Origin: Acidimicrobiales bacterium
Lineage (GTDB): Bacteria; Actinomycetota; Acidimicrobiia; Acidimicrobiales; Bog-793
Assembly: GCA_050744865.1 (NCBI GenBank)
Contig: JBOGHW010000032.1
Coordinates: forward strand, 5,047-69,046
DNA: 64,000 bases
Reading direction: 5' to 3'
Each line of letters opens with the position of its first letter. Within the stretch, counting starts at the first letter, position 1. Below the pieces are notes generated by a model. That model was not told the DNA's origin. It saw nothing but the letters and a program-made list of their open reading frames with translations, and did not search any database. Shown in pieces: positions 10,521 to 51,265 of this stretch. A program made the position numbers and the translations under genes.

Positions 10521-10550
10521 GGATCGATCACCGGCGGATCGATCACCGGC
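10521..10550. repeat. 15-bp x2 tandem duplication, intergenic
   Basis: ggatcgatcaccggc at 10521-10535 and 10536-10550. Confidence 0.9.
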
Positions 10551-10689
10551 GACTCGTCCCGACTCGCGGTCTAAGGCCCGCTCCGGGAGCGACTCTCTCG
10601 GCCCAGGCCGCGTCACCAAGTCGGCGCCTGCGCCTGAGCAGATGGTGGCAAGCGCGCCGCCGAACCGGTCGGCTGGCGGCTACTGCGCC

Positions 10690-10837
10690 GCCGTGCCTGT
10701 GGTCGTCGCCGTGCTGGCGGTTACGGCGCGTTGTGCGGAGGTCGTCGCCGTGCTGGCGGTTACGGCGCGTTGTGGAGGTCGTCGCCGTGCTGGCGGTTAC
10801 GGCGTCGTTGTGCCCGTGGTCGTCGCCGTGCTGGCGG
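10690..10837 (-). repeat. ~37-41-bp tandem array (about 4 copies) spanning the UPF0182 stop codon
   Basis: gtcgtcgccgtgctggcggttacggcg... starts at 10702, 10741, 10778 and 10819. The TAA stop (10797-10799, minus strand) lies in copy 3; copies 1-2 are downstream of the gene and copy 4 is coding (Thr-rich tail). Confidence 0.9.
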
Positions 10838-13784: not shown

Positions 13785-13794
13785 CGGAGAAGCG

Positions 13795-15954: not shown

Positions 15955-15983
15955 TACGACAGACTAGGGCCACAGGCCGCCCC

Positions 15984-17234: not shown

Positions 17235-17246
17235 GACGGATCAGCC

Positions 17247-17849: not shown

Positions 17850-17973
17850 GGTTGTGCACGGGCGCCGCAGCCGAACAGTCGACAGTCCACCCGGCGGGGA
17901 CCCGATTTCTCGAGGCTGTCCCGTTACTTGATGCTGGCCGGATGAAGCATGTCCGGACCCGGCACCGCATCGA

Positions 17974-33636: not shown

Positions 33637-35202
33637 GTGTCGGCTCAAAAGTCAGACGAGGTAGCACACCTCGCCGCCGCAAAGGATCGGGGGGCAGAGA
33701 CTGAGCACTCGGTTCCGCGCGTCCGCCTGACGGATCACTACTCCACCGGTCGCAGGCTCGCTGTGAGGGGGCCGGTAAAGCGACTTGGCTTCGTAGCCGC
33801 ATCAGTTCTGCTCTGCGGTGCGACTGCCTTCCTGGCTGTCGCCCTGGCTCACTTCCTCGTCGACGGGCAGCTGCTCGTCAAGAGGCACTACGAGAGCGGC
33901 GGATATACGACCAACCGGGCCTACATACTGATGGGGGGCGTGGCCGGCGTGGCGACGTGCGTCCTCACCCTCATGTCCCGCCTCGAGAAGTCCCGCGGCC
34001 CGGCCGGGTTCTTGGAGGAGTGGGTCGAAGCCAGTAAAGAGGCGTTCGTAGTCGGCATCGCCCTTGTGATCGTCGCCTTCTTCTGGCGCCCCGCTCTCGT
34101 CGCGAACTCGAACTTCTCCCGGGGCACCATCCTCATGTGCTGCCTCCTCCTCGTGTTCATGCTGGGCGCCATGAGGTCGGTGCTGCGCGCCTGCCTCTTG
34201 CAGATGCGAAAGCTCGGCCGCAACCTTGCCTCTGTCGTGGTCATCGGCGACGGGCCATCGGCCAGGTCGTTCATGGACACGCTGGAGCAGGACGGCTGCG
34301 GCTACAAGGTCGTGGCCCACGTGACCGACACCCAGATCGAGCATGACATCGGCGAGGTCCTCGGGGGGCTGTCGAGCGACCTGCCGATCGACGAGGTGGT
34401 CATCACGTCGTTCGCCATGGCACCCGAGCAACTGGCCCGGATCATCAGCCATCCGGGCATGCGCAATGCCAGGCTGCGTGCCGTACCTGAGATGTTCGGG
34501 CTCCCCCCTTCCAAGGTACAGATCGAGTCGTTCGGCGATTTCCCGCTGCTCACGCTGTTCGAGAACCCCGTGCGGGGTGTCCACTGGGTCGTCAAGCGGG
34601 CGGTCGACCTCGTCGGCGCCTCAGTCCTCCTCGTCGTCATGGGGCTGCCGATGCTCGTCATGGCGCTCGCAGTTCACGCCACCTCGGAGGGGCCTGTCCT
34701 GTTCCGCCAGGAGCGAGTGGGCATGGACGGCAAGCGATTCCAGCTCCTCAAGTTCCGGAGTATGGAGGCCGGCGTCTCCGACCAGGCGCACCGCGACTTC
34801 ATGACCCAGTTACTGAAGAGCCAGGTGTCCTCGGACAGCGCGGACGACGACTTCTTCAAGCTCACCGACGACCCGCGTGTAACCGCAATAGGTCATTTCC
34901 TCCGGCGCTTCTCGCTCGACGAGCTTCCCCAGTTGCTGAACGTGCTGCGAGGCGAGATGAGCCTTGTCGGTCCGCGCCCCGCCTTGGCCTACGAGGTCGA
35001 CCTATACGACGACTGGCAGCGGCGCCGGCTCGATGTTCTTCCCGGCATGACGGGTCTGTGGCAGGTGAGCGGGCGGTCTCGTCTCAGCCCCGCCGACATG
35101 CTCCGTCTCGACGTCCACTACGCCGACACCTGGTCGCTGGTGGGCGATCTGCTGATCATCTTGAAGACTGTCCCCGCCATTCTCCACGACAACGCCAGGT
35201 AG
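33637..35202 (+). CDS. polyprenyl-phosphate glycosyl-1-phosphate transferase (WbaP/EpsB-type priming sugar transferase)
   Basis: N-terminal TM bundle plus the C-terminal bacterial sugar transferase core: KRAVDLVGASVLLVV..., GPVLFRQERVGMDGKRFQLLKFRSM, DELPQLLNVLRGEMSLVGPRP. Confidence 0.85.
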   Translation: MSAQKSDEVAHLAAAKDRGAETEHSVPRVRLTDHYSTGRRLAVRGPVKRLGFVAASVLLCGATAFLAVALAHFLVDGQLLVKRHYESGGYTTNRAYILMGGVAGVATCVLTLMSRLEKSRGPAGFLEEWVEASKEAFVVGIALVIVAFFWRPALVANSNFSRGTILMCCLLLVFMLGAMRSVLRACLLQMRKLGRNLASVVVIGDGPSARSFMDTLEQDGCGYKVVAHVTDTQIEHDIGEVLGGLSSDLPIDEVVITSFAMAPEQLARIISHPGMRNARLRAVPEMFGLPPSKVQIESFGDFPLLTLFENPVRGVHWVVKRAVDLVGASVLLVVMGLPMLVMALAVHATSEGPVLFRQERVGMDGKRFQLLKFRSMEAGVSDQAHRDFMTQLLKSQVSSDSADDDFFKLTDDPRVTAIGHFLRRFSLDELPQLLNVLRGEMSLVGPRPALAYEVDLYDDWQRRRLDVLPGMTGLWQVSGRSRLSPADMLRLDVHYADTWSLVGDLLIILKTVPAILHDNAR

Positions 35203-35220
35203 CCCTCTGGCATCTCGGAG

Positions 35221-36960
35221 ATGAGCTTCAAAAGGGCGCGCCATAGCGCCGGAAGCCGAGCCCGGCAGTCCGGGCTCCTCGGCATCGAATTGCCGGGGAC
35301 CCACTTACCGGGGACCCACTTACCCGCGACCCAGGTGCCAGCGGCCGAGGTACAGGAGCAGGAAGCGGAGGAGGCAGACAGCGACCAGGCGCGAGGCGAG
35401 CTCCGCGTAGCTGCCCGCCGCGGTACTGCGTTCACCGTCGGCTTGTTCGCGAGCGCCATCGTCCAGTTCGCCTTCTTGACGCTCATAACCCACACGATCG
35501 ACCAGAAAGAGGCGGGCGCTCTCTTCGAAGCGATGGCCGTGTTCACGATCTGCAGCAACGCCGCCGAGCTGGGAGCCGACAGCGGGCTGCTCCGCCTGCT
35601 GCCCATCTACCGCAGGCGGAGGGCTCAGGACGTCCGCCGCCTGGCCCTTGTGGCGCTCGTGCCCGCCCTCGTCGTCTCCTGCCTGGCGGCGCTCGCCGTC
35701 TTCCTGTTCGCCGACCAGCTGACCAACGTATTCGTCCATCACGCTCCGAGGGCAAGCTCGGCGGACGATCTCAGGATCCTGGCGCTCTTCCTGCCTGCCT
35801 CCACCGTCTCGACAGTCGTGTGCGCCGGGCTCCTCAGCTGGTCGGCCAAGCAGTCTGTCGCCCTGAACAGCTTCTTTACGCCGTTCACGCGCCCTGTTCT
35901 GTTCGCTGGCTTCATGATCGTCGGGGTCACGCCAGAGCTGGCCGCCTTGGCCTGGGCGCTGCCTCTGGGCGCGACTTGCGTGGCGAGTGCCGTGCTATTG
36001 GCCCGCAAAGTGCGACGCTCCCCTGCCTCCCGGGAGTCGACGGGTTACTGGGTCCAGATGTGGCCGGCGTCCTTCGGCCGCATCGCAAAGGAGTTCTGGC
36101 TCTTCAGCCTGCCTCGGACGTTCGGGGCGATCTTCCAGATACTCGTCACCTACTTCGACGTCCTGCTTGTCGGCGCTTACATGGCGACGAAGTACGCGGC
36201 TGCATACTCTGTCGCCAGCAGATACGTCCTGTTGAGCACGTTCGCCCTGCAGGCGGTCGGGAACGCCGTGCCGACACAGCTCAGCCGCCTCATGGATGCG
36301 CGCAGTTACGGCAGGGTCCGCCAGGTCTACGCCTCGACGACTTGGTGGACCATCGCCTTCTCGTGGCCACCCCTCCTCGTGCTGGCTGTGTTCGGGCCCT
36401 TGTTCCTGTCCGTGTTCGGCCCCGGCTATGGCGTGGCGTCGACTGCCCTTGCCGTCTTGGCCCTCTCGATGCTGGCGAACATCGGAACGGGACCGAACGG
36501 CGTACTGCTGCTGATGGCCGGGCGCAGCCGGCTGAACCTCACCTTGCAGGCCGTCGGCCTGGTCACCAACATCGTTCTCAACCTGCTCCTCATCCCGCGT
36601 ATTGGGCTTCTCGGGGCGGCGATCGCCTGGGCTGTCACGATCCTGCTCACCTCGGGCCTGGCCTCGGCCATGCTCTGGCGCCAGATCGGCATCGAGCCGT
36701 TCGGGAAGGGATACGCGGTGGTGGCGGGCGCAGCGCTCGGGTGCTTCGGAGTGCTCGGCGCGCTCACCCGAGCGACCTTGGGGGTAGGACTGCTGCCCTT
36801 TGCAGGCTTTGCGGTCGTCAGTTGCTCCCTCTACGGCGTCATCCTCTGGAAGAGCCGCGGCGTCCTCAATCTCGACGCCTTCATGGCGACCTTCGGCCGC
36901 TTCGGCAAGCAGCTCCGGCGCTTTAGGCGGGACAGCCCGGCCGCAAAGGTGCGGGTCTAG
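35221..36960 (+). CDS. MOP/PST-family polysaccharide flippase (Wzx-like)
   Basis: About 12-14 hydrophobic segments, and position next to the priming transferase. The N-terminal ~60 codons are low complexity with a 15-bp repeat, so the start is uncertain. Confidence 0.7.
   Translation: MSFKRARHSAGSRARQSGLLGIELPGTHLPGTHLPATQVPAAEVQEQEAEEADSDQARGELRVAARRGTAFTVGLFASAIVQFAFLTLITHTIDQKEAGALFEAMAVFTICSNAAELGADSGLLRLLPIYRRRRAQDVRRLALVALVPALVVSCLAALAVFLFADQLTNVFVHHAPRASSADDLRILALFLPASTVSTVVCAGLLSWSAKQSVALNSFFTPFTRPVLFAGFMIVGVTPELAALAWALPLGATCVASAVLLARKVRRSPASRESTGYWVQMWPASFGRIAKEFWLFSLPRTFGAIFQILVTYFDVLLVGAYMATKYAAAYSVASRYVLLSTFALQAVGNAVPTQLSRLMDARSYGRVRQVYASTTWWTIAFSWPPLLVLAVFGPLFLSVFGPGYGVASTALAVLALSMLANIGTGPNGVLLLMAGRSRLNLTLQAVGLVTNIVLNLLLIPRIGLLGAAIAWAVTILLTSGLASAMLWRQIGIEPFGKGYAVVAGAALGCFGVLGALTRATLGVGLLPFAGFAVVSCSLYGVILWKSRGVLNLDAFMATFGRFGKQLRRFRRDSPAAKVRV
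35295..35339 (+). repeat. 15-bp tandem repeat (2 perfect + 1 diverged copy), in frame
   Basis: ggggacccacttacc at 35295-35309 and 35310-35324, then cgcgacccaggtgcc; encodes LPGTHLPGTHLPATQVP. Confidence 0.9.
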
Positions 36961-37718
36961 GGCAACGGGGTGTTACCCCCGGGGGCAATCTCGTCGACAA
37001 CCTCCAAGAAACGATAGTCCGCCGCATACCACGCCCTCAGATTCCCCACCGCTGCCTGGCTGAGAACGGCGGGACAGTCCTTGCTGGGACCGGCAACGCC
37101 CGAGCCTGCCGCTTCGGCGAAGCGCCTGTGGGCGCGGCTGTCGTCGCTCGGAAGCTCGATGGAGGCCAGCTCGAGGGCGGTTGCAAGGCAGGTGACGTCG
37201 AGCGACTCCTGGTGCCCGACCCAGAGCAGGCGGGGAGCCTGCCGGCGAAAGTACGCCTCGTCGCCGAACCAGTGCCAGTAGGACTGGTTGACGTGGCGGA
37301 TCGAGGCCATGGCATGCTCGGCAGCGCGCTGCTCCTCACCGCCGGCACTGAGCGCCTGGCCAAGCTCGTCAGGAGACCCGTAACGAGCGAACGCCGCCTC
37401 TTCCTCCGGCCGCCACGGCACGAAGTGCGCCGGTCGACCCTGCCGCTGCCGGCTGCGAAAGCCGCTCTCGTAACGGCTGAGGGGATCGCGCACGCAGAAG
37501 AAGAAGGCGTCGCCGGCCGGCAGATCCATCAAACGGAGCGGGTGCGTGTGCAACATCAGGTAGTACCGGCCGCTGTTGCTCTGGTGGCTGAGCCCGGCCT
37601 TGATGGCCGTCCCGGCCGTCTTGCCGACGTGGATGAAGTGCGCGACTTTGCGGCCGCGGGCGCGCTGGCGCAGCCGCTCGACCCGGCGCGCCGGCGTGAA
37701 GCGGGGCTTTGACAGCAC
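36957..37718 (-). CDS. sulfotransferase-family protein (family-2-like)
   Basis: VAHFIHVGKTAGTAIKAGL matches the FIH(I/V)PKTGGT-type PAPS-binding motif of Sulfotransfer_2 proteins; ...YLMLHTHPL... Confidence 0.6.
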   Translation of the reverse strand: MLSKPRFTPARRVERLRQRARGRKVAHFIHVGKTAGTAIKAGLSHQSNSGRYYLMLHTHPLRLMDLPAGDAFFFCVRDPLSRYESGFRSRQRQGRPAHFVPWRPEEEAAFARYGSPDELGQALSAGGEEQRAAEHAMASIRHVNQSYWHWFGDEAYFRRQAPRLLWVGHQESLDVTCLATALELASIELPSDDSRAHRRFAEAAGSGVAGPSKDCPAVLSQAAVGNLRAWYAADYRFLEVVDEIAPGGNTPLP

Positions 37719-38944: not shown

Positions 38945-38946
38945 TC

Positions 38947-40116
38947 TCAGCGCCGGCCGGCAGCGGGCCGGGCGGCACCGGAGGCGGGCATCTGGTCGGC
39001 CGTCTGGCGAGGCGTCTGGCCGGCTGTCTGCAGCAGCACCTCCAGGGCGGACGTGCCGCCGGAAGCGTAGGCAGGACTCACACCGGCCGGTTCGGAGGGC
39101 GGGAGGGACAGCGCCTCCTCGATTGCCATCGCCAGGGCGCCGGCGTCTCCTGCAGGCACGAGCACGTGCCCGGGCGTGCCTTCGACCATCTCGGCGAGCG
39201 GCCCTACGCGTGTGGCGATCACCTGGGTGCCCGACGCCAAAGCTTCCTGCACGACGAGGCAGCCGCCCTCGGTGAAGCTCGGCACGACGCAGACCCAGGC
39301 GCGCCTCAGCCACTCGTAGCGCTCGTCGCCGTACACCGGCCCGACGCGCACGACGCGCTCGTCGCCGTCGATGATCTCGAGCGCCCTGGACCACTCCGCC
39401 TGCCCACAGAAACGTGCCTCGTAGCCCGGCAGCCGCCTGTACTCCGGCCCGACCAGCACGAGCCGGGCGGGGACCGTTACCTGCCTGAAGGCGGACATCA
39501 GGACCTGGCAGCCTTTGGCGGGCGAGATGACGCCGAGGTACACCACCGTCGGCTCGGCTGACTTGGGACGCGAGCGCGCCTCAGCCACCGCAGCCGGCAG
39601 GCTCGGACGGTTGGGCACGAACGTCGTGGCACGGCCGCAGAAGCGCAGCCCCCTTACGTTGGCGACGAAAGACGTCCGCGGCATCCTGGCAACGATTCGA
39701 TAGGCAAGCTTGGCGACCCGGGGGCGCGTCTGCATCTCGGCCCGGAACTCGCCGTGCAGGTGCACGACAGTGGACCGCCGAGCGCCTCCGCTCAGCGCGG
39801 CCAGGGCAAGGGCGGCGATGTCGCGGCCGAGGCCCCAGCCTTGCTGGGACAGCGGTGCGTACACGACGGTCCCAGCTCGGCGATGCCTGAAACATGCCCG
39901 CGCCAACCCGGCGATAGTCGAGGCGGCACCGCCGAGCGCGTTGAACGAGAACCACCCGCGTTCGTCGCTCGGCGTGTATGCGGACCAGTCCAGCCACTCG
40001 AAGCGGGCACCCGAAGCCTCCAGCGCGTGTTTGAGGTCGTTGTTGAGCTGCTCGACACCGCTCTGGCGGACGTCGGTCCGGCCCACGCAAACGACAAGAG
40101 CGCCGCTGCCGCGCAT
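38947..40116 (-). CDS. glycosyltransferase family 4 (GT-B)
   Basis: VVPSFTEGGCLVVQEALASGTQVIATRVGPLAEMV (EX7E region). Confidence 0.8.
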   Translation of the reverse strand: MRGSGALVVCVGRTDVRQSGVEQLNNDLKHALEASGARFEWLDWSAYTPSDERGWFSFNALGGAASTIAGLARACFRHRRAGTVVYAPLSQQGWGLGRDIAALALAALSGGARRSTVVHLHGEFRAEMQTRPRVAKLAYRIVARMPRTSFVANVRGLRFCGRATTFVPNRPSLPAAVAEARSRPKSAEPTVVYLGVISPAKGCQVLMSAFRQVTVPARLVLVGPEYRRLPGYEARFCGQAEWSRALEIIDGDERVVRVGPVYGDERYEWLRRAWVCVVPSFTEGGCLVVQEALASGTQVIATRVGPLAEMVEGTPGHVLVPAGDAGALAMAIEEALSLPPSEPAGVSPAYASGGTSALEVLLQTAGQTPRQTADQMPASGAARPAAGRR

Positions 40117-40119
40117 GCC

Positions 40120-41142
40120 TCAAGCAGCCACAAGCGGGTGGACCCTGCTCAGCAGCAGGGCGACGAACGATCGGAGCGCTTCTCTGCCAGGCGCCCGGCG
40201 CTCGCCCATCACCTGTCGTGCGGGGAGGTCGAGATCCTTCAGGTCCCGCAGGCAGACCAAACGGCCTTTGGTCTCCAGCCAGCTGTCGACGGCTGCCGGC
40301 TTGCCCTCGAAGATCGAGTAGGTAGGCGTGCCCAGCACCGCCGACTCCCTGGTCATGGATCCGCCGCCACCCACGAAGACGTCAGCGGCATAGAGGAGGT
40401 CTGGGCCCGACACGGGGTCGAAGAGAACACGCACACCCTGGCGGTGTTCGTAACGCTCTCCCTGTGATCTCGTGCGCGGGCTGATAAGGACCGAGCAGCC
40501 GAGCTCAGCGAGCCTGTCGATTACGGCGTCGCAGATCGAGTTGGCGTGGCGATGGTAGAGCGCGCCTTCGGCCGCCGGCCTCACGACGGCGAGACGATCC
40601 CTCTCGCCAACCCCGAGCTTGGCCCTGAACCCCGCTTCTGGCCGGAAGCCCGCCAATGCGATGTCCTCCTTGAGTCCGGCATAGGGCATGTAGCGGCGGC
40701 GGGACAGCCCGAACTTGCGCACGGCTCCGTAGGGGATCACGTCAGGCAGGGCCACCAGGTTCGACGCTCGGAAGCCGACGTGGTTGGCGGGGTGGTGCTC
40801 GTAGTCCATCATCGTCACCGACGGGACCCGCAAGGCGCGGGCCGCCACTGCCTGGGCATTGGAGGCGTGACCGAGGGCGACGTCGACGTGCTGGCGGCGC
40901 ATTGCCAAATAAAGAGCAGCAGCGCGGCCGGCAATTGCCGTCCCCTTCGAGGCCTGGTCCATCCGGAATCCCTGCGACCCGATGACTTGCGTGTCGGGCC
41001 ACGTACGTTCTGCCAATGCTCTGGCCTGCCCGCGGTCCCAGACCGTGAACACGAACCTGTGGCCCTCTTCCTGCAGCGCCTCGACGACCGGCTTGAAGAC
41101 CGTCACGTTGGGCGCGTTGGCTATGTCAACCCACCACTTCAT
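40120..41142 (-). CDS. DUF354 protein (GT-B/epimerase-like, polysaccharide loci)
   Basis: MKWWVDIANAPNVTVFKPVVEALQEEGHRFVFTVWDRGQ..., MMDYEHH, PYAGLKEDIALAGF, GGGGSMTRESAVLGTPTYSIFEG; collinear with DUF354 as I remember it. Confidence 0.7.
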   Translation of the reverse strand: MKWWVDIANAPNVTVFKPVVEALQEEGHRFVFTVWDRGQARALAERTWPDTQVIGSQGFRMDQASKGTAIAGRAAALYLAMRRQHVDVALGHASNAQAVAARALRVPSVTMMDYEHHPANHVGFRASNLVALPDVIPYGAVRKFGLSRRRYMPYAGLKEDIALAGFRPEAGFRAKLGVGERDRLAVVRPAAEGALYHRHANSICDAVIDRLAELGCSVLISPRTRSQGERYEHRQGVRVLFDPVSGPDLLYAADVFVGGGGSMTRESAVLGTPTYSIFEGKPAAVDSWLETKGRLVCLRDLKDLDLPARQVMGERRAPGREALRSFVALLLSRVHPLVAA

Positions 41143-41175
41143 CTCAGTTCCCCCCTGTTTTGCTTGATCAACTAG

Positions 41176-42447: not shown

Positions 42448-42489
42448 CTTACGTTACGTGCCGGGGAAACTGCAAACTTGGAGCCGTCT

Positions 42490-43353: not shown

Positions 43354-44438
43354 GGCAGCGCCTCTGCCAGCACGGCCGCCACCCTCTCTGCTGCCCGGCC
43401 GTCCCAAAACGGCGGCCGGAACGGACCGGGCGGGGCACCATGGACAGCCAAGCGCCGGTTCGCTGCCGCGACGATCCGTCCCGGCTCGGTCCCGACGATC
43501 TCGTTGCGCCCACCCTGCAACGTGATCGGGCGCTCGGTCTCGTCCCGGAGGGTCAGGCAGGGTATCCCCAGCACCACGGCCTCTTCCTGGATGCCACCGG
43601 AGTCGGTGAGGACGAGAGACGACGAGGCCAAGAGGCCGATGAAGTCGGGGTAATTGACGGGTGGGAGCACCGTCACGCCATCTCCGAGCCCAATCCCTCC
43701 CAACTCCAGGCGCTGCCGGGTACGCGGGTGAACGGCGAACAGCAGGGGCAGCGTCTCGCTGATGGTGGCGAGAGCCGAGACCAAGCCGGCCAGAACGGCG
43801 GGTTGGTCGACGTTGGCCGGACGGTGCAGCGTGACGACGCCGAAGTCGCTCCCGGCGACGCCGTAGCGACGGCGGATCTCGGCGGTGTCGAGGCGCGGCA
43901 GCACCCAGTCGAGCGAGTCGATCATGACGTTGCCGACCAAGTGGACCGCCTCGGGCGGGACCGCCTCAGCCACCAGGTTGGCGATGGCGTCGGGCGACGG
44001 CGAGAAAAGCCACCGCGCCATGTGGTCGGTGAGGATGCGGTTGCGTTCCTCAGGCATCGAGGAGTTGAAGCTGCGCAGCCCGGCTTCGACGTGACCTACC
44101 GGCACGCCAACGGTGGACGACACCAGGGCAGCGGCCAACGTCGAGCTGACGTCGCCGACAACGAGCGTGCAGTCGGGCTTCACGTCCTCCAAGACGGTCT
44201 CGAGCCGCTCCATGATCGCGGCAATCTGGCGAGCTTGTGTACTCGCACCGACATCGAGGCGAATGTCGGCGGCCGGTAGCTCGAGAGCCATGATGATGTC
44301 GTCGGACATCGAAGCGTCGAAGTGCTGCCCCGTGTGCACGAGCACTGGCTCGACGCCGGGCAGGGCAGTCAGAGCCCGGTGCAGCGGAGCCACTTTGACG
44401 AAGTTGGGCCGCGTCCCGAACACCAGGAGGGGCCTCAC
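43350..44438 (-). CDS. wecB: UDP-N-acetylglucosamine 2-epimerase (non-hydrolysing)
   Basis: LLVFGTRPNFVKVAPL, VHTGQHFD..MSD, VGDVSSTLAAAL, LTDSGGIQEEA. GTG 44438 overlaps the upstream TGA; the ORF-track start is 44468. Confidence 0.9.
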   Translation of the reverse strand: MRPLLVFGTRPNFVKVAPLHRALTALPGVEPVLVHTGQHFDASMSDDIIMALELPAADIRLDVGASTQARQIAAIMERLETVLEDVKPDCTLVVGDVSSTLAAALVSSTVGVPVGHVEAGLRSFNSSMPEERNRILTDHMARWLFSPSPDAIANLVAEAVPPEAVHLVGNVMIDSLDWVLPRLDTAEIRRRYGVAGSDFGVVTLHRPANVDQPAVLAGLVSALATISETLPLLFAVHPRTRQRLELGGIGLGDGVTVLPPVNYPDFIGLLASSSLVLTDSGGIQEEAVVLGIPCLTLRDETERPITLQGGRNEIVGTEPGRIVAAANRRLAVHGAPPGPFRPPFWDGRAAERVAAVLAEALP

Positions 44439-45088
44439 GGGCGAGCTCCGAGGACGGTGGCCAGGCACCCGCCGGCCGGCTCGACTTCGACCGGGCCGCC
44501 AGTCACGACGGCCCGCGCCAAGCGCGAAGTCGCCAGCGTGGTCCAGAGCGACAACCGGAAGTCAGACTCCGCCGTCTCCTCGCCACGCAACAGAGCCACG
44601 AAGCCCGCCATCTCCTCGGCGTGCCCCTTGGCCGGTGCCTTCCAGCGCCGCTTGGCCGCGCCAGTTCCCCAGATCGACAGAGTGCGAGGTATAACGACGT
44701 ACTCGCAATGGTTGGCATAACCGGCCCCGGCGCAGGCGACCAGCTCGCCCGGGCGGATGTCGCCAACCCCTGAGCCGACCTCCACGACGGTGCCGGCCGA
44801 CGAATAGCCCGTCAGCATGGGGCTCGAGAGCCTGTCGCTCACAACTCTCCACGTCTCGACCGGCCCGGTCAGCCGGACACTCTGCATGACTTGGTGCACC
44901 TGGTCGGGCCGCCTGCGGGCTTTGCCAAGCAGCGAGTCCTTCCCGGTCTGAAGGCGCGCCCGCTCGGTCCCGGCACTGATGAGCGAGAAGTGGTTGCGCA
45001 CGAGGACCTGGCCGGGCCTGGTGCTCGGCGCCGGTACGTCGGCAACCGAGATCCTGCCGTCCTTTGCCCGGAAGAGAACTGCTTTCAT
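44435..45088 (-). CDS. internally deleted remnant of a bi-domain (Zn-ADH + Gfo/Idh/MocA) oxidoreductase; possible pseudogene
   Basis: Residues 1-135 match the GroES-like ADH N-terminus of bi-domain oxidoreductases (VPAPSTRPGQVLVRNHFSLISAGTER...LLGKARRRPDQVHQV...GYSSAGTVVEVG). Residues ~150-200 (KGHAEEMAGFVALLRGEE...) resemble that family's extreme C-terminus. The ~500 aa in between is absent. Confidence 0.5.
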   Translation of the reverse strand: MKAVLFRAKDGRISVADVPAPSTRPGQVLVRNHFSLISAGTERARLQTGKDSLLGKARRRPDQVHQVMQSVRLTGPVETWRVVSDRLSSPMLTGYSSAGTVVEVGSGVGDIRPGELVACAGAGYANHCEYVVIPRTLSIWGTGAAKRRWKAPAKGHAEEMAGFVALLRGEETAESDFRLSLWTTLATSRLARAVVTGGPVEVEPAGGCLATVLGARP

Positions 45089-46131
45089 GATCCTGGTCGT
45101 CCCTTGGTCAGATCCTCGCCAACAGATGCGCGCGGGCGCCAGCCAAGTGCCTTGCTGCCCCCCTTCCGGTCGACCCTACTCAAGGCCGCCAGCCCGTCGG
45201 TGCTCGTCCTGCTCGGCAACAGCGGGTAGCCGTAGCGGTGCAGGAGGGGGACGGCCGGCAGCGTCGCCTTGCCGAGATCGCGTCCTGACATTGCCTGGCG
45301 CCAGCGCTCGTCCAGCGCCAGCTCGACGGTGCCTGACTGGAAGCGGTTCGGATTGCCGCCCACGAGGTGACACGACGACCCCACGTGGACGGCACCGCTG
45401 CCTTCGAGCGGTAGGTCCTCGGCCCTGCAGCCGAAAGCTTCCGCAGCCGCGCCGAGCACCTGTCGGGGCGCTGTCACGAAGTCCTCGTAGCGCAAGCGCT
45501 GGTAGCGCGAGCCGAGCCGCCTGCGCACGAAGAGCTCCGCCTCGCCGTTGGCGGCGGCCCACCAGAACGAGCTCATGGCCGGGCTGAACGTCTGCAACGA
45601 CTCTCCTTGCCGACCCGGGTCGGCCGTCGGCCGTGACCACGAGAAGGCCGCCGCCCGCGGGTCGCGGACGAGGTGGATCACATACAGGTCGACTCGCGGA
45701 TCCCTGCAGAGGATGAGGATGTCACTCACGAACTTGGACGAGTCGATGACACCTGTCGTGCCGCAGTAGGCGGTGGCCGCCTGGTACAGATTCACGAGGA
45801 GCTCGCCGTAGGGATTGAGCGGACGTCCCGGGCGCCGGCGCAGCTCCCACCACAAGCGGGGGATGTGACGTTGGCGCTCCTCGGCGGCTCGCAGCGAGGT
45901 TGCCTGCTGCTCGTCGATACCGCTTGACGCCAGGGCGTCCTTCAGCACGACGGACCAGAAGTCGCAGTCCAGCACGGTGCTGCCACACGAGCAGCGGTGG
46001 GCGGCGACACCCCGGTCGTCGAACAGGTCGCGCACCTCGCCGAGGGACGTGAACCCAGGCAGCTGGCCAAGGATCCGGTCGAGCAGTGTCGACCCGCTAC
46101 GCCCGTGGCCCGTCACGCAGACGACCTTCAT
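45085..46131 (-). CDS. sulfotransferase-family protein
   Basis: VCVTGHGRSGSTLLDRILG (5'-PSB), Cys cluster RCSCGSTVLDCDFW, IDSSKF, HLVRDPRAAAFS. Confidence 0.75.
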   Translation of the reverse strand: MKVVCVTGHGRSGSTLLDRILGQLPGFTSLGEVRDLFDDRGVAAHRCSCGSTVLDCDFWSVVLKDALASSGIDEQQATSLRAAEERQRHIPRLWWELRRRPGRPLNPYGELLVNLYQAATAYCGTTGVIDSSKFVSDILILCRDPRVDLYVIHLVRDPRAAAFSWSRPTADPGRQGESLQTFSPAMSSFWWAAANGEAELFVRRRLGSRYQRLRYEDFVTAPRQVLGAAAEAFGCRAEDLPLEGSGAVHVGSSCHLVGGNPNRFQSGTVELALDERWRQAMSGRDLGKATLPAVPLLHRYGYPLLPSRTSTDGLAALSRVDRKGGSKALGWRPRASVGEDLTKGRPGS

Positions 46132-48128
46132 GCCCGCCCTGACTTCGGTGTGGTACCGCCAGTCCCTCGCTTCAGAGCCACGGCCACCGGGCCCGCAATC
46201 AAGCCCGTCAGCAGCTGTGATCCGGCCGGCATGGCGCGACGCCAGCCGTCGTCAAGACGAACGACTCGCCTGTTGCCTGCTGTCCGGCTCGGGTTGCCGG
46301 CCAGTACGTGGGATGTCGCCAAGCCCACAGTGGCTCCCTCGAACCGCGGCCCGCCACCTTCCAGCCCGAGCAGGGCGCCGAGGCGAGCCAGCTCCGCCGC
46401 CGGTTCTGCGCAGAGCGCCTCGTAAGAGGCGGTCGCCGAGTGCATGACCCGGCCGGCGACGAGGCGGCACTCGAGGTTGGCCGTCGCGTAGCCCCTGGCG
46501 CTGCTCAGCGTCGAGCGCACGGGCGGGGGAGCCGTGGTCTGCGCGTCCCGCTCGTGGGGGCGCTGCGACTCGGACCAGGCGACGGCTCGCGGGTCTCGCA
46601 GAAGATGCACGCCCGCTATCTGCTCTCCGAGCGCCAGCCTCATGATGGCCAAGCCAGTAGCCGACTTGGAGGAGTCGACCAACGTCGACGCGCCCGAACC
46701 CTCGAGAAGCAGGTCTACGAGCGATCTCAGCCAGTCGGCGTACTCGGCGACGTCGGCCGGCCAGCTCGAAGGCGGCCGCCGAGCCAGTGCCACCAGCTCG
46801 ACAAGGCGCCGCTGGCGTTCGACTCCGCGCCGGAGCTGCCATACCCGCCGGCGCTCCTCTCCTGTCAGGAGCTTGGCGGTTGGCATGGCCCACACAGGGC
46901 AGTCGACAGCCTCCGCGCCACACGAGCAGCGCTGGCCAAGGCTGGTCGGGAGTGCGGCGTTGTTGAGCTCGCCGACGGCGACCGCACCGGGAAACGACCC
47001 GAGAAGCTCGCCAACCAGGGTGCTCCCGCTCCGCATCGACCCGGCGACGTAGACGAGCCGCGGCGCTAAGGCCGGCACTCTTGGCACTGCGGGTGTGCTG
47101 CCGGCGGGCGTCGGGCCGCCTGGCGAGCCGGCCGGCGGGTCGGCGGGTACCTCGGCCAGCGGGCGGCAGGCCGGCGACGACAGACGGCCGATGGCGATGC
47201 GTCCCAGCGCCTGCACCGTGCCGAGAGCCCTGGAAAGCTCCGCCTTGTCGCGCCGGGCAAGACCGAGGCCGACCCGCAGGCACGCATCGCCTGCTGCCGA
47301 CCAGGCGAAGGCGAGCCGAGAGATGCCGTTGCCGGCCTGCTCGGCTGCCCAAGCTGCCACGATCACGGTCGCCTCGTAGGCGTGCCGCCGCGATCCCCAG
47401 CGGTTGGCGGGAGACAGGTCGTGCACGCAGCGCGCCCTCGTTTCTACGGCTAGGCGCCCGCTCCGCGAGACCCTGAAGCCGAAGTCTTTGTCCTCGGCCT
47501 TCGAGTAGCCCTCCAGCCTGTCGTCGAAACGATGCCTCAGCACGACATCGAGGCGGTAGCTCATCGCACAGCCGCTCAGCCAGTCGAGGCGACCGCCGTC
47601 GGGTCCACCCGGGTATTGGCCCATGACGGCTCGGCCGGACTTCAACACCGAGCCCGGCACCGGGCCCCACAACCCGAAGAGGCGCTTCAGTTGCTTGAAC
47701 GACGGCACCGGCTGGTTCTCGACCACGGCACCGACGCCGGCGAGGTCCTTCTCCGCAGCCAGCCGCGCCTCGATCGCTTCTTGGTACCCGGGCCGGATCC
47801 TCGTGTCGTCGTCGATGAAGTGGACGATCTCCACCCCAAGGCGCCGACAGTAGAGGGCAGAGTCGTTGCGCTGGCGGGCCAGCCCGGGACGCTCGGCCCG
47901 CACGTAGTGCAGGTCGAGAGGCAGCTCCGAGGCCGAGCAGAGACCTGCCGTCGCCTCGCCGGCGCTGGCGTCGTAGACCACCACGCATGACCCGGGGCGA
48001 TCCTGCGCCACGCAGCAGAGGGCAGCTGCCAACTCACCGGGTCGGTCGCGGGTGCAAATGACCACCGCAGCTTTGGGTCTGTCGATCCCCGCCGGCGGAG
48101 CTTCGAAAGCTGTCATAGACGCCGTCAC
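46128..48128 (-). CDS. fusion protein: N-terminal GT2 glycosyltransferase + C-terminal sulfotransferase
   Basis: N-terminal half: VVICTRDRPGEL, VVVYDAS, HFIDDD (DxD). C-terminal half after a Pro-rich linker: VYVAGSMRSGSTLVGELLG, QRCSCGAEAVDCPVW, VDSSKS, HLLRDPRAVAWS, which is paralogous to the 45085 ORF. Confidence 0.75.
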   Translation of the reverse strand: MTASMTAFEAPPAGIDRPKAAVVICTRDRPGELAAALCCVAQDRPGSCVVVYDASAGEATAGLCSASELPLDLHYVRAERPGLARQRNDSALYCRRLGVEIVHFIDDDTRIRPGYQEAIEARLAAEKDLAGVGAVVENQPVPSFKQLKRLFGLWGPVPGSVLKSGRAVMGQYPGGPDGGRLDWLSGCAMSYRLDVVLRHRFDDRLEGYSKAEDKDFGFRVSRSGRLAVETRARCVHDLSPANRWGSRRHAYEATVIVAAWAAEQAGNGISRLAFAWSAAGDACLRVGLGLARRDKAELSRALGTVQALGRIAIGRLSSPACRPLAEVPADPPAGSPGGPTPAGSTPAVPRVPALAPRLVYVAGSMRSGSTLVGELLGSFPGAVAVGELNNAALPTSLGQRCSCGAEAVDCPVWAMPTAKLLTGEERRRVWQLRRGVERQRRLVELVALARRPPSSWPADVAEYADWLRSLVDLLLEGSGASTLVDSSKSATGLAIMRLALGEQIAGVHLLRDPRAVAWSESQRPHERDAQTTAPPPVRSTLSSARGYATANLECRLVAGRVMHSATASYEALCAEPAAELARLGALLGLEGGGPRFEGATVGLATSHVLAGNPSRTAGNRRVVRLDDGWRRAMPAGSQLLTGLIAGPVAVALKRGTGGTTPKSGRA

Positions 48129-49570
48129 GAGATCGGCGCTAGCTCTGCCTCGAGGGCGACGAGTGCATCGCCGTCCTCGAGATCCGGGGCGTCCATGAGC
48201 TTTGCCGACAGACCGAAGGCGAGCGCAACCACTAGCCAGCTCGGGCCTCCCATGTAAGTGACCTCCAGCGAGACATTCGTCGCAGCGGTGACAATGGCGG
48301 CAACGAGGGCACCGAAGACGGCTGGAGCGTAGATACTTCGTCGCCGGACCTTCCAGATTCGCCAGAGCGCCAACAGGAAGACGAAGATCACCAGGAGGCC
48401 TGCCGGATAGCCGGCGTAGAACGTGTAGCCGACGAAGGAGTCATGCACGCCCATGCCGGCCTTGGTCGCGATGTTGTTGTTCTTCAGCTGCACGTCGATC
48501 GGGTGGTAGGCGCCGACTCCGAGAAGTGGGTCGTCGTCCCAGGTGGTATGCAAGGCGTAGCTCCACATGAGCTCGCGCAGCGTGACGTTGTCGGCCGCCG
48601 CGACCTGCGCCCCGCTGGCACGCTCGGCAAGCCTGCCTACCAGCGGAACGGACCGTGGCACGACGATGAAGCCACTGATGACCGCGAGGCTGAACAGGGC
48701 CGTGCAAAAGCCCAAGGCGAGCGTCAGGAGCATTCGCCGGGACAGGTATCGGAGCTGCTGGCTCGCCATCCAGGCCGCCGCGCACGACAGCAGCAGCGTG
48801 AGCGTCACGCCCCGCTTGGCAGAGTACGCGATGAGCATCACCGAGCCCATGAGGAACGTGGCCGTCAGCAGCTTGCGGCCAGGCATACCGCCCACCACGG
48901 CAAAGGCACCGGCAATCCCGAGCTCGAGCCCGAAGGCCGAAGGGATCATGTGGTGGCCGTGGTCGAGCAACAAGCCGAGCGGGATGACCGGCAAGATGAT
49001 CCTCGGCAGCCACTGCAGCAGGCGCTCGGGCTCGTGCAGCTGTGACAGCCATCCTGCGATCGGCACGGCGGCCAAGGGGTAGAGCACGAGGACGAGACCC
49101 TTGATGGCATCTGGGTATTTGTGATGCCGGCCGACGTCGACGCCGTGCAGCATCAACAGGGAGACCGCAGTGCAGCAAGCGGCCATCACCCCGAGGTGCC
49201 TCCAGCGCGCCCGGCCGAGCGACGCCAACGCTGCCAGCGTGGCCAGGACGTCAGGCAAGTAGATCGGGTTGAAACCGATCAGCGAGTACGACCTGCTCAG
49301 CAAGAACATCGGCAGGAGATAGGCGAGCAGGATCAAGCTGACCCAGGACCATCGGTCCGCGTGGTCCTTCACGCCGCCCGGCCGGACAGCCCTCCAGCTC
49401 AGAGTGGCGAACAGGACAAGGCCCGCCCCTCCGGCGACGGCGAGGGCCGGGATCGGCTCCATGGCCGTAGCAGTGCCGGCGATGGCCGCCAGCAGCACAA
49501 CGCCCATGGTTGTCAGCACCCGACGAGCATGTTCGCCCGCAGGCGCCATGCCTGATTCAACCCCCCTCAA
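48125..49570 (-). CDS. O-antigen polymerase/ligase-like (Wzy-type) polytopic membrane protein
   Basis: About 10-12 hydrophobic segments with one larger loop, located between the glycosyltransferase and the Wzz/BY-kinase gene. No sharper motif recognised. Confidence 0.6.
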   Translation of the reverse strand: MRGVESGMAPAGEHARRVLTTMGVVLLAAIAGTATAMEPIPALAVAGGAGLVLFATLSWRAVRPGGVKDHADRWSWVSLILLAYLLPMFLLSRSYSLIGFNPIYLPDVLATLAALASLGRARWRHLGVMAACCTAVSLLMLHGVDVGRHHKYPDAIKGLVLVLYPLAAVPIAGWLSQLHEPERLLQWLPRIILPVIPLGLLLDHGHHMIPSAFGLELGIAGAFAVVGGMPGRKLLTATFLMGSVMLIAYSAKRGVTLTLLLSCAAAWMASQQLRYLSRRMLLTLALGFCTALFSLAVISGFIVVPRSVPLVGRLAERASGAQVAAADNVTLRELMWSYALHTTWDDDPLLGVGAYHPIDVQLKNNNIATKAGMGVHDSFVGYTFYAGYPAGLLVIFVFLLALWRIWKVRRRSIYAPAVFGALVAAIVTAATNVSLEVTYMGGPSWLVVALAFGLSAKLMDAPDLEDGDALVALEAELAPIS

Positions 49571-49591
49571 CTGCTGTCCCCCCTCAGGGCT

Positions 49592-51265
49592 TTACACCCT
49601 GGTACGCACTTTCTCCGATCCTCTCCGGCCGCTGCCGCTGCCGTTGGATCGGCTGGTGAAATGAGTCGCCGCCGTCTCGCGGCCTTGCCCGGTATCGGGC
49701 TTCTTCTCGGCGTGCCCGTAGTAGCCGTAGTAGCCGTAGTACGAGTCGGACCTCTTGATGGCTGCACCGTTCAGGACACTGCCTATGACAGGCGCATCGA
49801 CTTGGCTGAGGACACGGCGGAGCTTGGCAAGGCTGCGCCTGCGGGTGCGATTCTGAGCTACGACGAGCACCACGCCGTCTGCATAGCGCGACATGACGAC
49901 GGCGTCGGTCACGGGAAGGACCGGGGGTGCATCGATGAGGACGACGTCGAACCTCTCCCGCAGGTCGCTCAGCACCGACTGCAGGCGAGGGCTGCTGAGG
50001 AACTCGGCAGCTCCGTCGGGAAGAGGCCCGGTGCCGAGGAAGTAGAGCCCGGCGACGTCGACGACAGGTTGGATGGCATCTTCCACGCCAGCCACGCCAA
50101 GTGCGATCGACGTCAACCCGACAGTCTCTTGCAGGCCGAGAAAGCTACCGAGGCGGGGGCGGCGGAGGTCGCCGGACAGCACGAGCGTCTTCTTGCCCGA
50201 GCGCGCAAAGGTGACCCCAAGGTTGGCGACCGTCGAGGTCTTGCCTTCCAAGCCGACCGAGCTCGTCACGACAAGGGTCCTCACTGACTGGTTGAGCCGC
50301 GTGAACTCGACTGCGGTGCGCAACGACCTGTAAGCCTCCGAAACGATGTTGCGTGGCGCTTGCAAGCTCACCACGTACGGGCTGGAGACGTCGTTCCAGC
50401 TGTCGACGATTGGTATGACGCCCAGGTGCGGCATCTCGGGGCACGTGCGATCTATGTCGGCCTCGCTCCTGACAGAGTCGTCGAAAGCGTCGACGACGAA
50501 CGCAAGCACGAGGCCGAGGATGAGCCCGACGACGAGCCCGAGGCCGAGGTCGCGGCTCGTCTTGGGTGAGCTCGGGCTCTTCGGGGGATTGGCAACAGAC
50601 GTCTGCTGCACGGTGCTGCCTGCCTTCTCCAGCTGGGCCTGCAGCGCCACGTCGGCACTCTGAACACTGATGACGGTCTGGATATCCTGCTGCAGCGTTG
50701 CCTTGTCCACGTTCTCGGTCGGGCTGAGTGGCTGGCCCGCCGGGACGGCGTCGAGGACCTTCTCGAGCGAGACCTCGTTGCTCTGCAGATTGATGACCTC
50801 GGCCTTGTTGTCGGCGATCTGGCTGTTGACCGACGTCTGCTGCTGCTCGCCCATCACCTGGATGAACGCCTTGGCGTAGTCGTTGGCGATGGTGGCGGCC
50901 TTGATGGGCGACGAGTTCGCAACCGAGATCGCGATGAGGCTGGTCGTGCCGGAGGCGGACGCCGTAGCCGGCGGTGGCGGCGTGACGCCGAGGTCCTTGC
51001 TCACGAGTTGCTTCACCCACGTCGAGGTGACGAGAGCAGCGTCCGTATCGACGTTGCCCTTGCTCCCGCTCGTGCCGCCCAGCACCTCAACGGTCGCCTG
51101 GGCCGTGTACACCTTCGTCTCGGAGTACGAGTACAGCCCGGCGGCAACCACGACTATCAGCGCCGTGGCAGCTATCCACCACCCACGGCGCCGGATGGTC
51201 CGCAAATAGTCGTTGACAGGGGAGTCGGGAGCGCGTTGGTCCGTCGCCACCGGCGTAGTATACAT
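49592..51265 (-). CDS. polysaccharide co-polymerase (Wzz) fused to BY-type tyrosine kinase (Wzc-like)
   Basis: N-terminal TM + coiled periplasmic-type domain + second TM. Walker A SSVGLEGKTSTVANLG, Walker A' LVLSGDLRRP, Walker B VVLIDAPPVLPVTDA. C-terminal Tyr cluster SDSYYGYYGYYGH. Likely ATG 51265. Confidence 0.85.
   Translation of the reverse strand: MYTTPVATDQRAPDSPVNDYLRTIRRRGWWIAATALIVVVAAGLYSYSETKVYTAQATVEVLGGTSGSKGNVDTDAALVTSTWVKQLVSKDLGVTPPPPATASASGTTSLIAISVANSSPIKAATIANDYAKAFIQVMGEQQQTSVNSQIADNKAEVINLQSNEVSLEKVLDAVPAGQPLSPTENVDKATLQQDIQTVISVQSADVALQAQLEKAGSTVQQTSVANPPKSPSSPKTSRDLGLGLVVGLILGLVLAFVVDAFDDSVRSEADIDRTCPEMPHLGVIPIVDSWNDVSSPYVVSLQAPRNIVSEAYRSLRTAVEFTRLNQSVRTLVVTSSVGLEGKTSTVANLGVTFARSGKKTLVLSGDLRRPRLGSFLGLQETVGLTSIALGVAGVEDAIQPVVDVAGLYFLGTGPLPDGAAEFLSSPRLQSVLSDLRERFDVVLIDAPPVLPVTDAVVMSRYADGVVLVVAQNRTRRRSLAKLRRVLSQVDAPVIGSVLNGAAIKRSDSYYGYYGYYGHAEKKPDTGQGRETAATHFTSRSNGSGSGRRGSEKVRTRV

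Follow-up and report, generated by a model that had tools for sequence, protein, structure and literature searches.

A sulfotransferase-dense Wzx/Wzy glycan locus of an uncultured Acidimicrobiales bacterium, a candidate pathway for a sulfated surface polysaccharide

The DNA analyzed here (the window) is a 64-kb stretch (64,000 nucleotides [nts]) of contig JBOGHW010000032.1 from assembly GCA_050744865.1 of an uncultured Acidimicrobiales bacterium; it is high-GC DNA (~67%). At positions 33637 to 51265 the window carries a contiguous locus of glycan-assembly genes in which four sulfotransferase (ST) domains, belonging to three subfamilies, lie among the components of a Wzx/Wzy pathway, and a fifth ST gene lies outside this locus at 28092. 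We consider it probable that the locus encodes a Wzx/Wzy-dependent pathway for a sulfated, uronic acid-containing surface or extracellular heteropolysaccharide. Gene families, motifs, fusions, and synteny are what the data show directly; from these we infer all of the mechanistic steps. A first-pass annotation of the same DNA had proposed an acidic Wzx/Wzy heteropolysaccharide sulfated at several positions, and the ST motifs, the ST fusions, the homologs linked to cys genes, and the conserved position of the island, all read from sequence, support that proposal.

Sulfotransferase domains

The ST domains were judged by the two motifs that bind 3'-phosphoadenosine-5'-phosphosulfate (PAPS): the 5'-phosphosulfate-binding motif (5'-PSB), taken as a P-loop-like K/R-x-G-T/S-T/S, and the 3'-phosphate-binding motif (3'-PB), taken as R-x-P ... 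S. All four domains of the contiguous locus have both, as does the ST at 28092. The 5'-PSB reads GKTAGT in the ST at 36957, QRAGTTS at 42490, GRSGST at 45085, MRSGST in the C-terminal half of the protein at 46128, and HRSGTS at 28092; the corresponding 3'-PB motifs are RDPLSRYES, REPVARAVS, RDPRAAAFS, RDPRAVAWS, and RHPIAVS. Every ST motif quoted in the first-pass annotation is present where it was quoted, and the 3'-PB, which had been left for checking, is found in five of five. Within the family alignments (A1, A2, and A5) the PAPS-binding motifs are invariant, including the R and the S of the 3'-PB. All of the STs are predicted to be soluble and cytoplasmic.

The assignment to Pfam Sulfotransfer families, also left for checking, held for the domains at 28092, 42490, and 45085, which score above gathering (27 for Sulfotransfer_3 and 22 each for Sulfotransfer_1 and Sulfotransfer_2); the domain in the protein at 46128 is borderline, and the ST at 36957 fails.

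The ST at 42490 is a Sulfotransfer_1 protein (ST1) of the heparan sulfate (HS) 3-O-sulfotransferase (3-OST) type. It matched HS 3-OST-3A and the bacterial structure 3rnl in the PDB (E = 8e-16), and its family, with at least 697 homologs, many of them named as Acidimicrobiales, keeps R55 in GAQRxGTTS, E78 (aligned with the catalytic Glu of 3-OST), R138, and S146. In its 5'-PSB an Arg replaces the canonical Lys; 27 family members have this Arg without exception, which marks it as a trait of the family and not as a sign of decay. The Sulfotransfer_3 (ST3) family, including NodH, has also been reported to use an RxG 5'-PSB (PMC11625862).

The ST at 45085 belongs to a CxCG subfamily of ST3 in which the invariant residues (alignment A2) are G..RSGST, GE, CxCG..C..W, DSSK, RDPR..S, YE, and H...GNP.R. 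Its match among PDB sequences was the ST of OLS/CurM (E = 7e-8), which is remote, with 17% identity to CurM. The sulfotransferase fold was confirmed on an AlphaFold2 (AF2) model (pLDDT 87), which Foldseek matched to the CurM ST (E = 7.6e-7), to TPST (~1e-5), to the mycobacterial Stf9 and Stf0, and more weakly to LGS1 and retinol dehydratase. In this subfamily, represented in the window by 45085-46131 and 46128-47099, the invariant Cys triad (CxCG...C..W) lies just past the 5'-PSB, where it may bind a metal or form a disulfide.

The 253-aa ST at 36957 had no significant match among the library models (Sulfotransfer_2, E = 0.16, 12.5 versus a gathering score of 22), and PDB sequence searches with it, as with the 666-aa protein at 46128, gave nothing useful. 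A word-indexed search gave 33 family members, many of which have PF03567, seen in homologs of 36 to 50% identity. The family invariants are H30, K33, and G36 (HxGKTxGT), R77, D78, P79, R82, and S85 (RDPxxRxxS), and H142. The AF2 model of this protein (pLDDT 88.7) gave weak PDB fold matches (E = 0.02 to 0.06, TM-score 0.42 to 0.47), of which six of the top eight were sulfotransferases, with the carbohydrate STs HS 2-OST, NDST, and 6-OST first. On this combined evidence from sequence and model we accept the protein as a sulfotransferase, with less certainty than the other four. The gene, on the minus strand, is squeezed in by plus-strand genes on either side: its stop codon and that of wzx overlap by 4 nt, and its start is ~44 nt from the probable start of the GH5 glycoside hydrolase gene or overlaps the longest GH5 ORF (open reading frame). 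Either way, divergent promoters have almost no room. The true GH5 start is probably 37763, as called on a second assembly (see below).

The fifth sulfotransferase and its link to the flippase

The ST at 28092 lies downstream of a gene for a MoxR-type ATPase, and its motifs in full are GGLHRSGTS and RHPIAVS. The related contigs that bear on its role are designated by L numbers here and below. A 59% ortholog occupies the same position in L010, and a 49% ortholog lies between the ST1 and Wzx genes in L016. In L015, the plus-strand gene at 2082-4757 encodes an 891-aa protein whose N-terminal domain is a 28092-type ST (46% identity) and whose C-terminal part is a Wzx ortholog (50%). To our knowledge, no ST-flippase fusion has been described, and a metagenome scan for more ST-Wzx fusions gave remote partial matches only. 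Because the ortholog adjoins Wzx in L016 and is fused to Wzx in L015, we assign the ST at 28092 to the pathway, in line with the first-pass annotation, which had listed it as a fifth ST; that it is unrelated to the locus was considered and is rejected by the same adjacency and fusion.

The GT2-ST fusion

The protein at 46128 joins a family 2 glycosyltransferase (GT2) domain to an ST3 domain. On PF13469 the whole protein scored 26.0 bits and the C-terminal half alone 28.6 bits, against the gathering score of 27; this half and the ST at 45085 are paralogs (30% identity, E = 9e-25). The closest homolog of the N-terminal half, P0036 (54% identity), matches Glycos_transf_2 above gathering. A word-indexed search with the 666-aa protein returned the protein itself and one weak GT2 only; in an exhaustive search the two halves were found elsewhere mostly as separate proteins of ~300 aa. 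The GT2 and ST3 counterparts are separate genes in L010 and L004, and since they are separate neighbors in L010, the fusion in the window arose from adjacent genes.

An independent GT2-ST3 fusion with the same domain order was found (P0080), and ST3 domains are also fused in the orders GT28C-ST3-GT2 (P0139) and Wzy_C-ST3 (P0122). We rejected the possibility that the fusion in the window is an artifact of assembly or frameshift: homology covers both halves in a single frame, the second assembly has the identical ORF, the third-position GC signature runs through the linker, and independent fusions of the same order exist. The fusions of STs to GT2 and to Wzx argue that the acceptors are glycans.

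A conserved chromosomal island

Upstream of the locus are genes for MreB, MoaE, a VWA protein, and the MoxR ATPase and then sdhCAB; downstream are mdh, icd, folD, purH, purN, glyA, and sucCD. The polysaccharide island thus sits between sdhCAB and mdh-icd, which is a conserved chromosomal site. The proteins of the window recur identically on L001, contig CDBEPM010000172.1 of GCA_974104365.1, a second assembly.

Conservation of the locus in relatives, which the first-pass annotation had named as a check, takes the form of variant islands at the same site in L010, L016, and, in part, L004. In L010 (Acidimicrobiales) the gene order is MoxR, ST3 (28092 type), sdhCAB, PGT (the priming phosphoglycosyl transferase), ST1, Wzx, ST3, ST3, GT2, Wzy, BY-kinase (bacterial tyrosine kinase), mdh, icd. 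The partial island of L004, an Acidimicrobiales metagenome-assembled genome (MAG) from SPRUCE peat, has mdh, BY-kinase, Wzy, ST3, GT2, and a GT14-like gene, with a Sulfotransfer_2-like ST on the opposite side of mdh. L016 has, at 10001-15073 between sdhCAB and mdh, a minimal island of ST1, ST3 (28092 type), Wzx, and PGT, with no polymerase, polysaccharide copolymerase (PCP), or further glycosyltransferase (GT).

Identity to the relatives is 72 to 87% for the housekeeping flanks and 45 to 65% for the island genes, and orthology of the GT2 and Wzy of the window with those of L010 is not detectable. A diverged island between conserved flanks is what one usually finds where hypervariable surface-polysaccharide loci occupy a fixed site. 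Four ST types are kept across the diverged islands at 45 to 59% identity. Chance does not account for the clustering of the STs, since at least three other genomes also have orthologous STs grouped in this island. By sequence comparison, the PGT, Wzx, ST1, and 28092-type ST3 are the conserved core; since the L016 island consists of these four genes only, a lipid carrier bearing a sulfated sugar is all that the core could make.

Genomic context of sulfotransferase homologs

Six of the seven ST1-family contexts that we examined are glycan-assembly loci. A scan of contigs with a narrow four-sequence family alignment gave five loci. In L011 (Acidimicrobiales), genes for Inositol_P (CysQ-like), PAPS_reduct (CysD), GTP_EFTU (CysN), and APS_kinase proteins at 14220-17934 directly adjoin a glycan locus with an ST1 homolog (54%), GT14, DegT, Glycos_transf_4, a methyltransferase, and an acetyltransferase. 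A cyanobacterial homolog of the Sulfotransfer_2-like ST likewise has an APS kinase gene immediately after it. Glycan loci of the ABC-transporter type with three or more STs were found in L003/L005 (an Acidimicrobiales MAG; 3040-14356) and L012 (a 1.1-Mb contig; 2559-16814). Other genes of L003 encode a TMEM260_N protein and large proteins that have CW_binding_2 or NIDO/TIG/DUF4214 domains, a hint that sulfated glycans of the wall or an S-layer may be made there.

Other homologs have other neighbors. Two of the Sulfotransfer_2-like contexts are lone genes beside a regulator. At 10001-13685 of L014 an ST1 homolog (53%) lies beside genes for a PIG-L-family deacetylase, a rhodanese, a cysteine dioxygenase, and TauD; the pairing of a deacetylase with an HS-type ST recalls NDST, but the context is one of sulfur metabolism and not of glycans. 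In L006 (5026-10660; a Syntrophobacteraceae MAG) a Sulfotransfer_2-like domain is fused to an NTP_transf_5 domain and follows a PqqD-GT2-GT25 multidomain protein and an HPr-kinase-like protein, a context that looks like modification of a peptide or other small substrate and not like exopolysaccharide (EPS) synthesis.

Gene content of the locus

The features are listed in Table 1. We count 14 ORFs at 33637-51265, of which 10 form a minus-strand array, and the independent gene calls on L001 agree. The first-pass annotation had given 15 contiguous genes, a number reached if the GT2-ST fusion is counted twice, and 11 in the array; the 217-aa ORF at 44435-45088 was absent from its description. It had also stated that the array is mostly joined by 4-nt overlaps: the overlaps are present, and we correct their number to five of nine junctions, which indicates an operon. 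The coding status of every ORF is backed by third-position and codon-position GC, and all of the gene identities that the annotation had named were reproduced in Pfam, NCBIfam, or PDB searches.

TABLE 1 Features of the glycan locus and the outlying sulfotransferase gene (positions in the window)
Coordinates	Strand	Feature	Match or description
28092..28925	+	ST (Sulfotransfer_3), weakly similar to TPST and NoeE	PF13469 E = 6e-23, 82.6 bits
33637..35202	+	Priming polyprenyl-phosphate hexose-1-phosphate transferase (large WbaP/WcaJ-type PGT)	Bac_transf E = 3e-60
35221..36960	+	Wzx-type MOP flippase	MatE 48.5 bits, Polysacc_synt_3 29.2 bits, both above gathering
36957..37718	-	ST, small family related to Sulfotransfer_2	253 aa; homologs with PF03567
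37709..38944	+	Membrane-anchored GH5 glycoside hydrolase	Cellulase PF00150 E = 1e-22; NEP motif
38947..40116	-	GT4 glycosyltransferase	Glyco_trans_1_4 and Glycos_transf_1 matches
40120..41142	-	DUF354 protein, presumed GT-B-fold transferase	PF04007 E = 1e-36
41176..42447	-	NDP-sugar 6-dehydrogenase, UDP-N-acetylhexosamine clade	All three UDPG_MGDP_dh domains
42490..43353	-	ST1, HS 3-O-sulfotransferase type (Sulfotransfer_1)	PF00685 E = 3.5e-8, 33.6 bits
43350..44438	-	Nonhydrolyzing UDP-GlcNAc 2-epimerase (WecB)	Epimerase_2 E = 1.5e-95
44435..45088	-	Remnant of bidomain (Zn-ADH + Gfo/Idh/MocA) oxidoreductase	217 aa; homology to 759-aa Streptomyces protein
45085..46131	-	ST3, CxCG subfamily (Sulfotransfer_3)	PF13469 44.0 bits
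46128..48128	-	Bifunctional GT2 + Sulfotransfer_3	666 aa; GT2 ~1-320, Pro/Ala linker, ST3 ~355-666
48125..49570	-	Wzy-like polymerase (O-antigen polymerase/ligase superfamily)	Wzy_C 29.0 bits
49592..51265	-	Wzz (PCP) fused to BY-kinase	Wzz 30.7 versus 25.5; TIGR01007 159 bits versus cutoff 108

The PGT, Wzx, Wzy, PCP, and GH5 proteins are predicted membrane proteins, and no ST or GT has a transmembrane (TM)- or signal-like segment. The PGT has five to six TM-like segments and scores 354 bits on TIGR03025 (cutoff, 296). Wzx has ~12, with orthologs of 45 to 50% identity in L010, L015, and L016. The Wzy-like protein has ~10, is encoded between the PCP and the GTs, and has an ortholog in L004 (phmmer E = 1e-171). 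The GH5 enzyme has one N-terminal TM segment and a 46% ortholog in the L015 locus.

The Wzz/BY-kinase has two TM segments, a Walker A motif (GLEGKTS), a Walker B motif (VVLIDAPP), and a tail, SYYGYYGYYGH, with a cluster of six Tyr. Its Walker A' is a variant, SGDLRRP, versus the canonical DxDxR, and S[GA]DLRRP is also found at this position in the BY-kinases of L004 (7064-8797) and L010 (16961-18664). Tails of YG repeats forming Tyr clusters are found on the BY-kinases of this lineage and reach (YG)x9 in L010.

The first-pass annotation had WecB and the dehydrogenase supplying UDP-ManNAcA. For WecB the evidence reaches the equivalog level (TIGR00236, 294 bits versus a cutoff of 210), but the dehydrogenase reaches only its subfamily model (TIGR03026, 377 bits versus 190) and is far below the cutoffs of the UDP-ManNAc dehydrogenase equivalog models (257 versus 750 and 213 versus 459). 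Its best PDB matches are 4r16, a UDP-ManNAcA dehydrogenase (E = 9e-68), and Cap5O (E = 9e-54). These structural relatives, which are UDP-ManNAcA dehydrogenases, make UDP-ManNAcA the likeliest product, and its supply by these two enzymes is plausible on sequence grounds; the alternative may be a WbpA/WbpI-type route via UDP-GlcNAcA. As for the GTs, the GT4 has a 60% ortholog in L015, and the DUF354 protein had no match in NCBIfam and none in the PDB sequence search.

The 217-aa ORF is what is left of a larger enzyme. Its residues 1 to 151 align to residues 1 to 151 of a 759-aa Streptomyces protein (56% identity) and its residues 113 to 214 to residues 626 to 725 of the same protein (42% identity); an in-frame deletion of ~480 to 500 residues has left ~150 N-terminal and ~75 C-terminal residues. 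The remnant, joined to both neighbors by 4-nt overlaps and identical in the second assembly, is probably inactive. In Streptomyces, the intact gene adjoins wecC, wecB, and asnB, and an intact 758-aa homolog is encoded in the L015 locus beside a heparinase II/III-like gene. With the oxidoreductase decayed here and intact in L015, the pathway of the window has therefore probably lost a sugar-modifying step.

No RNA family was found in an Rfam search of the window, and a promoter and terminator scan gave nothing exceeding the shuffled expectation. ARAGORN called a 93-nt tRNA-Pro(CGG) at 29221-29313 (+), within an ORF of 286 aa ahead of sdhA; the call is probably a false positive, given its unusual length and the conservation of this ORF in L010.

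Proposed pathway

In the pathway that we propose, the large PGT would load hexose-1-phosphate onto undecaprenyl phosphate, and WecB with the NDP-sugar dehydrogenase would supply UDP-N-acetyl-hexosaminuronic acid, most likely UDP-ManNAcA. The GT4, the DUF354 protein, and the GT2 domain would extend the repeat unit to ~3 to 4 sugars. Five cytoplasmic PAPS-dependent ST domains would O-sulfate the lipid-linked repeat unit: the HS-3-OST-like ST1, the Sulfotransfer_2-like ST, the two paralogous CxCG ST3 domains (one of them fused to GT2), and the ST3 at 28092. The GT2-ST fusion would couple the addition of one sugar to its sulfation. PAPS is found in the cytoplasm and the STs lack TM and signal segments, so sulfation would take place on the lipid-linked unit before flipping. 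Wzx would then flip the polyanionic unit, Wzy would polymerize it under the control of the Wzz/BY-kinase, and the membrane-anchored GH5 would trim or release the polymer extracellularly. PAPS supply (cysDNC) and removal of PAP (cysQ) would be encoded elsewhere in the genome. The polymer may be densely sulfated, to judge from five ST domains against about three GTs and the PGT; any stoichiometry is speculative.

A bolder form of this proposal is that sulfation is no mere decoration but a step, obligatory and coupled to export, in making a surface glycan found throughout the Acidimicrobiales lineage, with the pathway elaborated here to about one ST per sugar. Such a pathway would yield a polyanion that resembles glycosaminoglycans, contains N-acetyl-hexosaminuronic acid, and is charged about as densely as heparin; among Gram-positive lineages it would be the first Wzy-dependent polymer of this type. 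This form is drawn from the four-gene core (PGT, Wzx, ST1, and 28092-type ST3) at a fixed site and from the fusion of an ST to the flippase in one relative. We offer it tentatively and regard it as doubtful.

Alternatives

Several observations weigh against a sulfated Wzx/Wzy polysaccharide. The pathway is read from the genes of an organism represented by MAGs only. No PAPS-synthesis (cys), cysQ, or sulfate-transporter gene lies in the 64-kb window, and no sulfatase gene; the first-pass annotation had noted the lack of cysDNC and sulfatase genes, and our family searches of the window agree. The Wzy_C score, 29.0 bits, is below the gathering score of 31.7. The DUF354 family is without an established function, and its role as a GT here is presumed. 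One gene of the operon is a deletion remnant, and therefore there has been some decay of the locus. Some homologs of the Sulfotransfer_2-like ST and of ST1 lie outside glycan loci. Finally, the closest structural relatives of the ST3 domains, CurM and TPST, are not polysaccharide STs, so acceptor specificity cannot be read from them.

These observations feed three other explanations. The product could be a short, sulfated, lipid-linked glycan that is moved to protein (an S-layer protein or O-glycoprotein) or to the cell wall, with the Wzy_C protein acting as a ligase or oligosaccharyltransferase. Wzy_C belongs to a superfamily that includes O-antigen ligases as well as polymerases, and the match is below gathering; the minimal island of L016, with its PGT, Wzx, ST1, and ST3 only, and the multi-ST locus of another Acidimicrobiales bacterium beside TMEM260_N and CW_binding_2 or NIDO/TIG proteins fit this explanation as well. 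The window, however, has a full PCP/BY-kinase with intact Walker A and Walker B motifs and Tyr cluster, and this protein, a Wzy-like protein of ~10 TM segments, and an extracellular GH5 are together typical of loci for high-molecular-weight EPS or capsular polysaccharide. We think transfer to protein or wall unlikely. It is somewhat less likely still that the polysaccharide made is unsulfated or has at most one sulfate, several of the STs being inactive or acting on small molecules or lipids. The decayed gene in the operon, the failure of the ST at 36957 on its Pfam model, the Arg in place of the canonical Lys in the 5'-PSB of the ST1 family, the homologs in nonglycan contexts, and the lack of a PAPS gene within the window all count in its favor. 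But the motif residues are invariant within each family, the Arg included, and an RxG 5'-PSB is on record for ST3 (PMC11625862); moreover, four ST types have been retained at 45 to 59% identity across diverged islands, and the STs that are fused to GT2 or Wzx point to glycans as acceptors.

The third explanation, which we hold to be very improbable, takes up the resemblance of the ST3 domains to CurM: sulfation would be transient, activating a hydroxyl for elimination or ring formation, and no sulfate would be left in the product. The best matches of the ST at 45085 are indeed the activating STs of curacin and olefin synthases, and LGS1 and retinol dehydratase, among its weaker matches, belong to sulfation-assisted chemistry. 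Yet the CurM match is remote (17% identity), Pfam searches found no thioesterase, polyketide synthase, or lyase partner in the locus, and the same ST3 subfamily is fused to GT2, GT28, and Wzy_C. A polymer that keeps its sulfates remains our preferred explanation.

Comparison with known systems

Among characterized systems, the nearest is the xss cluster of Synechocystis sp. PCC 6803, which makes synechan; it is Wzx/Wzy dependent and has two STs, and its chemistry is proven (PMC8205485). Like the locus described here, it is a Wzx/Wzy/PCP EPS cluster in which STs of different subfamilies lie among glycosyltransferases; sulfation is assumed to take place on the cytoplasmic lipid-linked repeat unit, as we propose, and the PAPS genes are outside the cluster. 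The two STs and eight GTs of xss fit two sulfates per eight sugars, whereas here there are five ST domains for about three GTs plus the PGT. The regulators XssQ, XssR, and XssS have no evident counterpart: Pfam found no regulator domain in the ORFs at 33637-51265, a result that comes without an XssQ-specific search. The gene for the outer membrane polysaccharide export (OPX) protein of xss (xssT) is on the main chromosome; the locus here has no OPX gene, and the organism is inferred to be monoderm. No GT-ST fusion is present in xss, whereas the locus here has one. The synechan product is chemically proven, and the locus here is known from its genes alone.

Within the phylum, the nearest is wps-1 of Actinoplanes missouriensis (2026), a Wzx/Wzy/Wzz cluster with an HS-type ST, WpsH, and a Gal/GlcNAc-type ST, WpsB; both STs are needed for sporangium formation, and sulfation is inferred (PMC13390465). 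By its published description, wps-1 shares with our locus the phylum Actinomycetota and the combination of STs with a glycoside hydrolase. It has two STs, a GH26, a methyltransferase, and a kinase-like protein, whereas the locus here has five STs and a GH5, and it has genetic phenotypes, whereas ours comes from the MAG of an uncultured Acidimicrobiales bacterium. The first-pass annotation had stated that the actinobacterial STs studied so far are not tied to Wzy polymers, a statement that the 2026 report on wps-1 has made out of date (PMC13390465).

Sulfated capsules with ST-bearing clusters have been structurally proven in Vibrio sp. KMM 8419 and Cobetia marina KMM 1449 (PMC11641403, PMC11766843). 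Their clusters are linked to cysDNC and cysQ, as in the relative L011, but they are from Gammaproteobacteria, use ABC-transporter (Kps-type) assembly, have the PAPS genes inside the cluster, and have fewer STs per repeat unit. A review lists six bacterial genera with sulfated polysaccharides (PMC11625862). Our literature searches on sulfotransferases of Acidimicrobiia and Acidimicrobiales found nothing relevant.

There are also likenesses to the HS enzymes of animals. Animal HS 3-OST is a homolog of the ST at 42490 (E = 8e-16), with the catalytic Glu and the 3'-PB residues aligned, although the Lys of the animal 5'-PSB is Arg in the bacterial ST1 family. The model of the ST at 36957 weakly resembles animal 2-OST, 6-OST, and NDST, and the bifunctional logic of NDST is paralleled by the GT2-ST fusion. 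The animal enzymes, however, are Golgi-lumenal type II membrane proteins that act on finished polymer, whereas the STs here are predicted to be soluble and cytoplasmic and presumably act before export.

Implications

The assembly logic of the locus is not new; it is a known kind of pathway in a lineage for which it had no prior description. The points of interest are the density of STs, the GT2-ST fusion, the ST-Wzx fusion in a relative, and the conserved site of the island. The results also hint that glycan loci with several STs recur in the Acidimicrobiales, as a trait not described so far. Sulfated polysaccharides of bacteria are still commonly called rare or assigned to cyanobacteria only (PMC8205485, PMC13390465). 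The present locus and those related to it point the other way: glycan loci that have three to five STs recur in uncultured Acidimicrobiales, and some of these loci are linked to PAPS-synthesis genes.

Compact, soluble bacterial carbohydrate STs, such as the HS-3-OST homolog and the GT2-ST enzyme, could serve in making engineered sulfated glycans. We speculate that a sulfated polyanion would keep its charge at low pH. Should the products be sulfated, bacteria of this lineage would supply sulfated glycans and organosulfur to peat, soil, and water, which bears on who feeds sulfatase-rich degraders; if the export-coupled form of our proposal were true, a bacterial source of sulfated glycans in peat and soil may have gone unrecognized.

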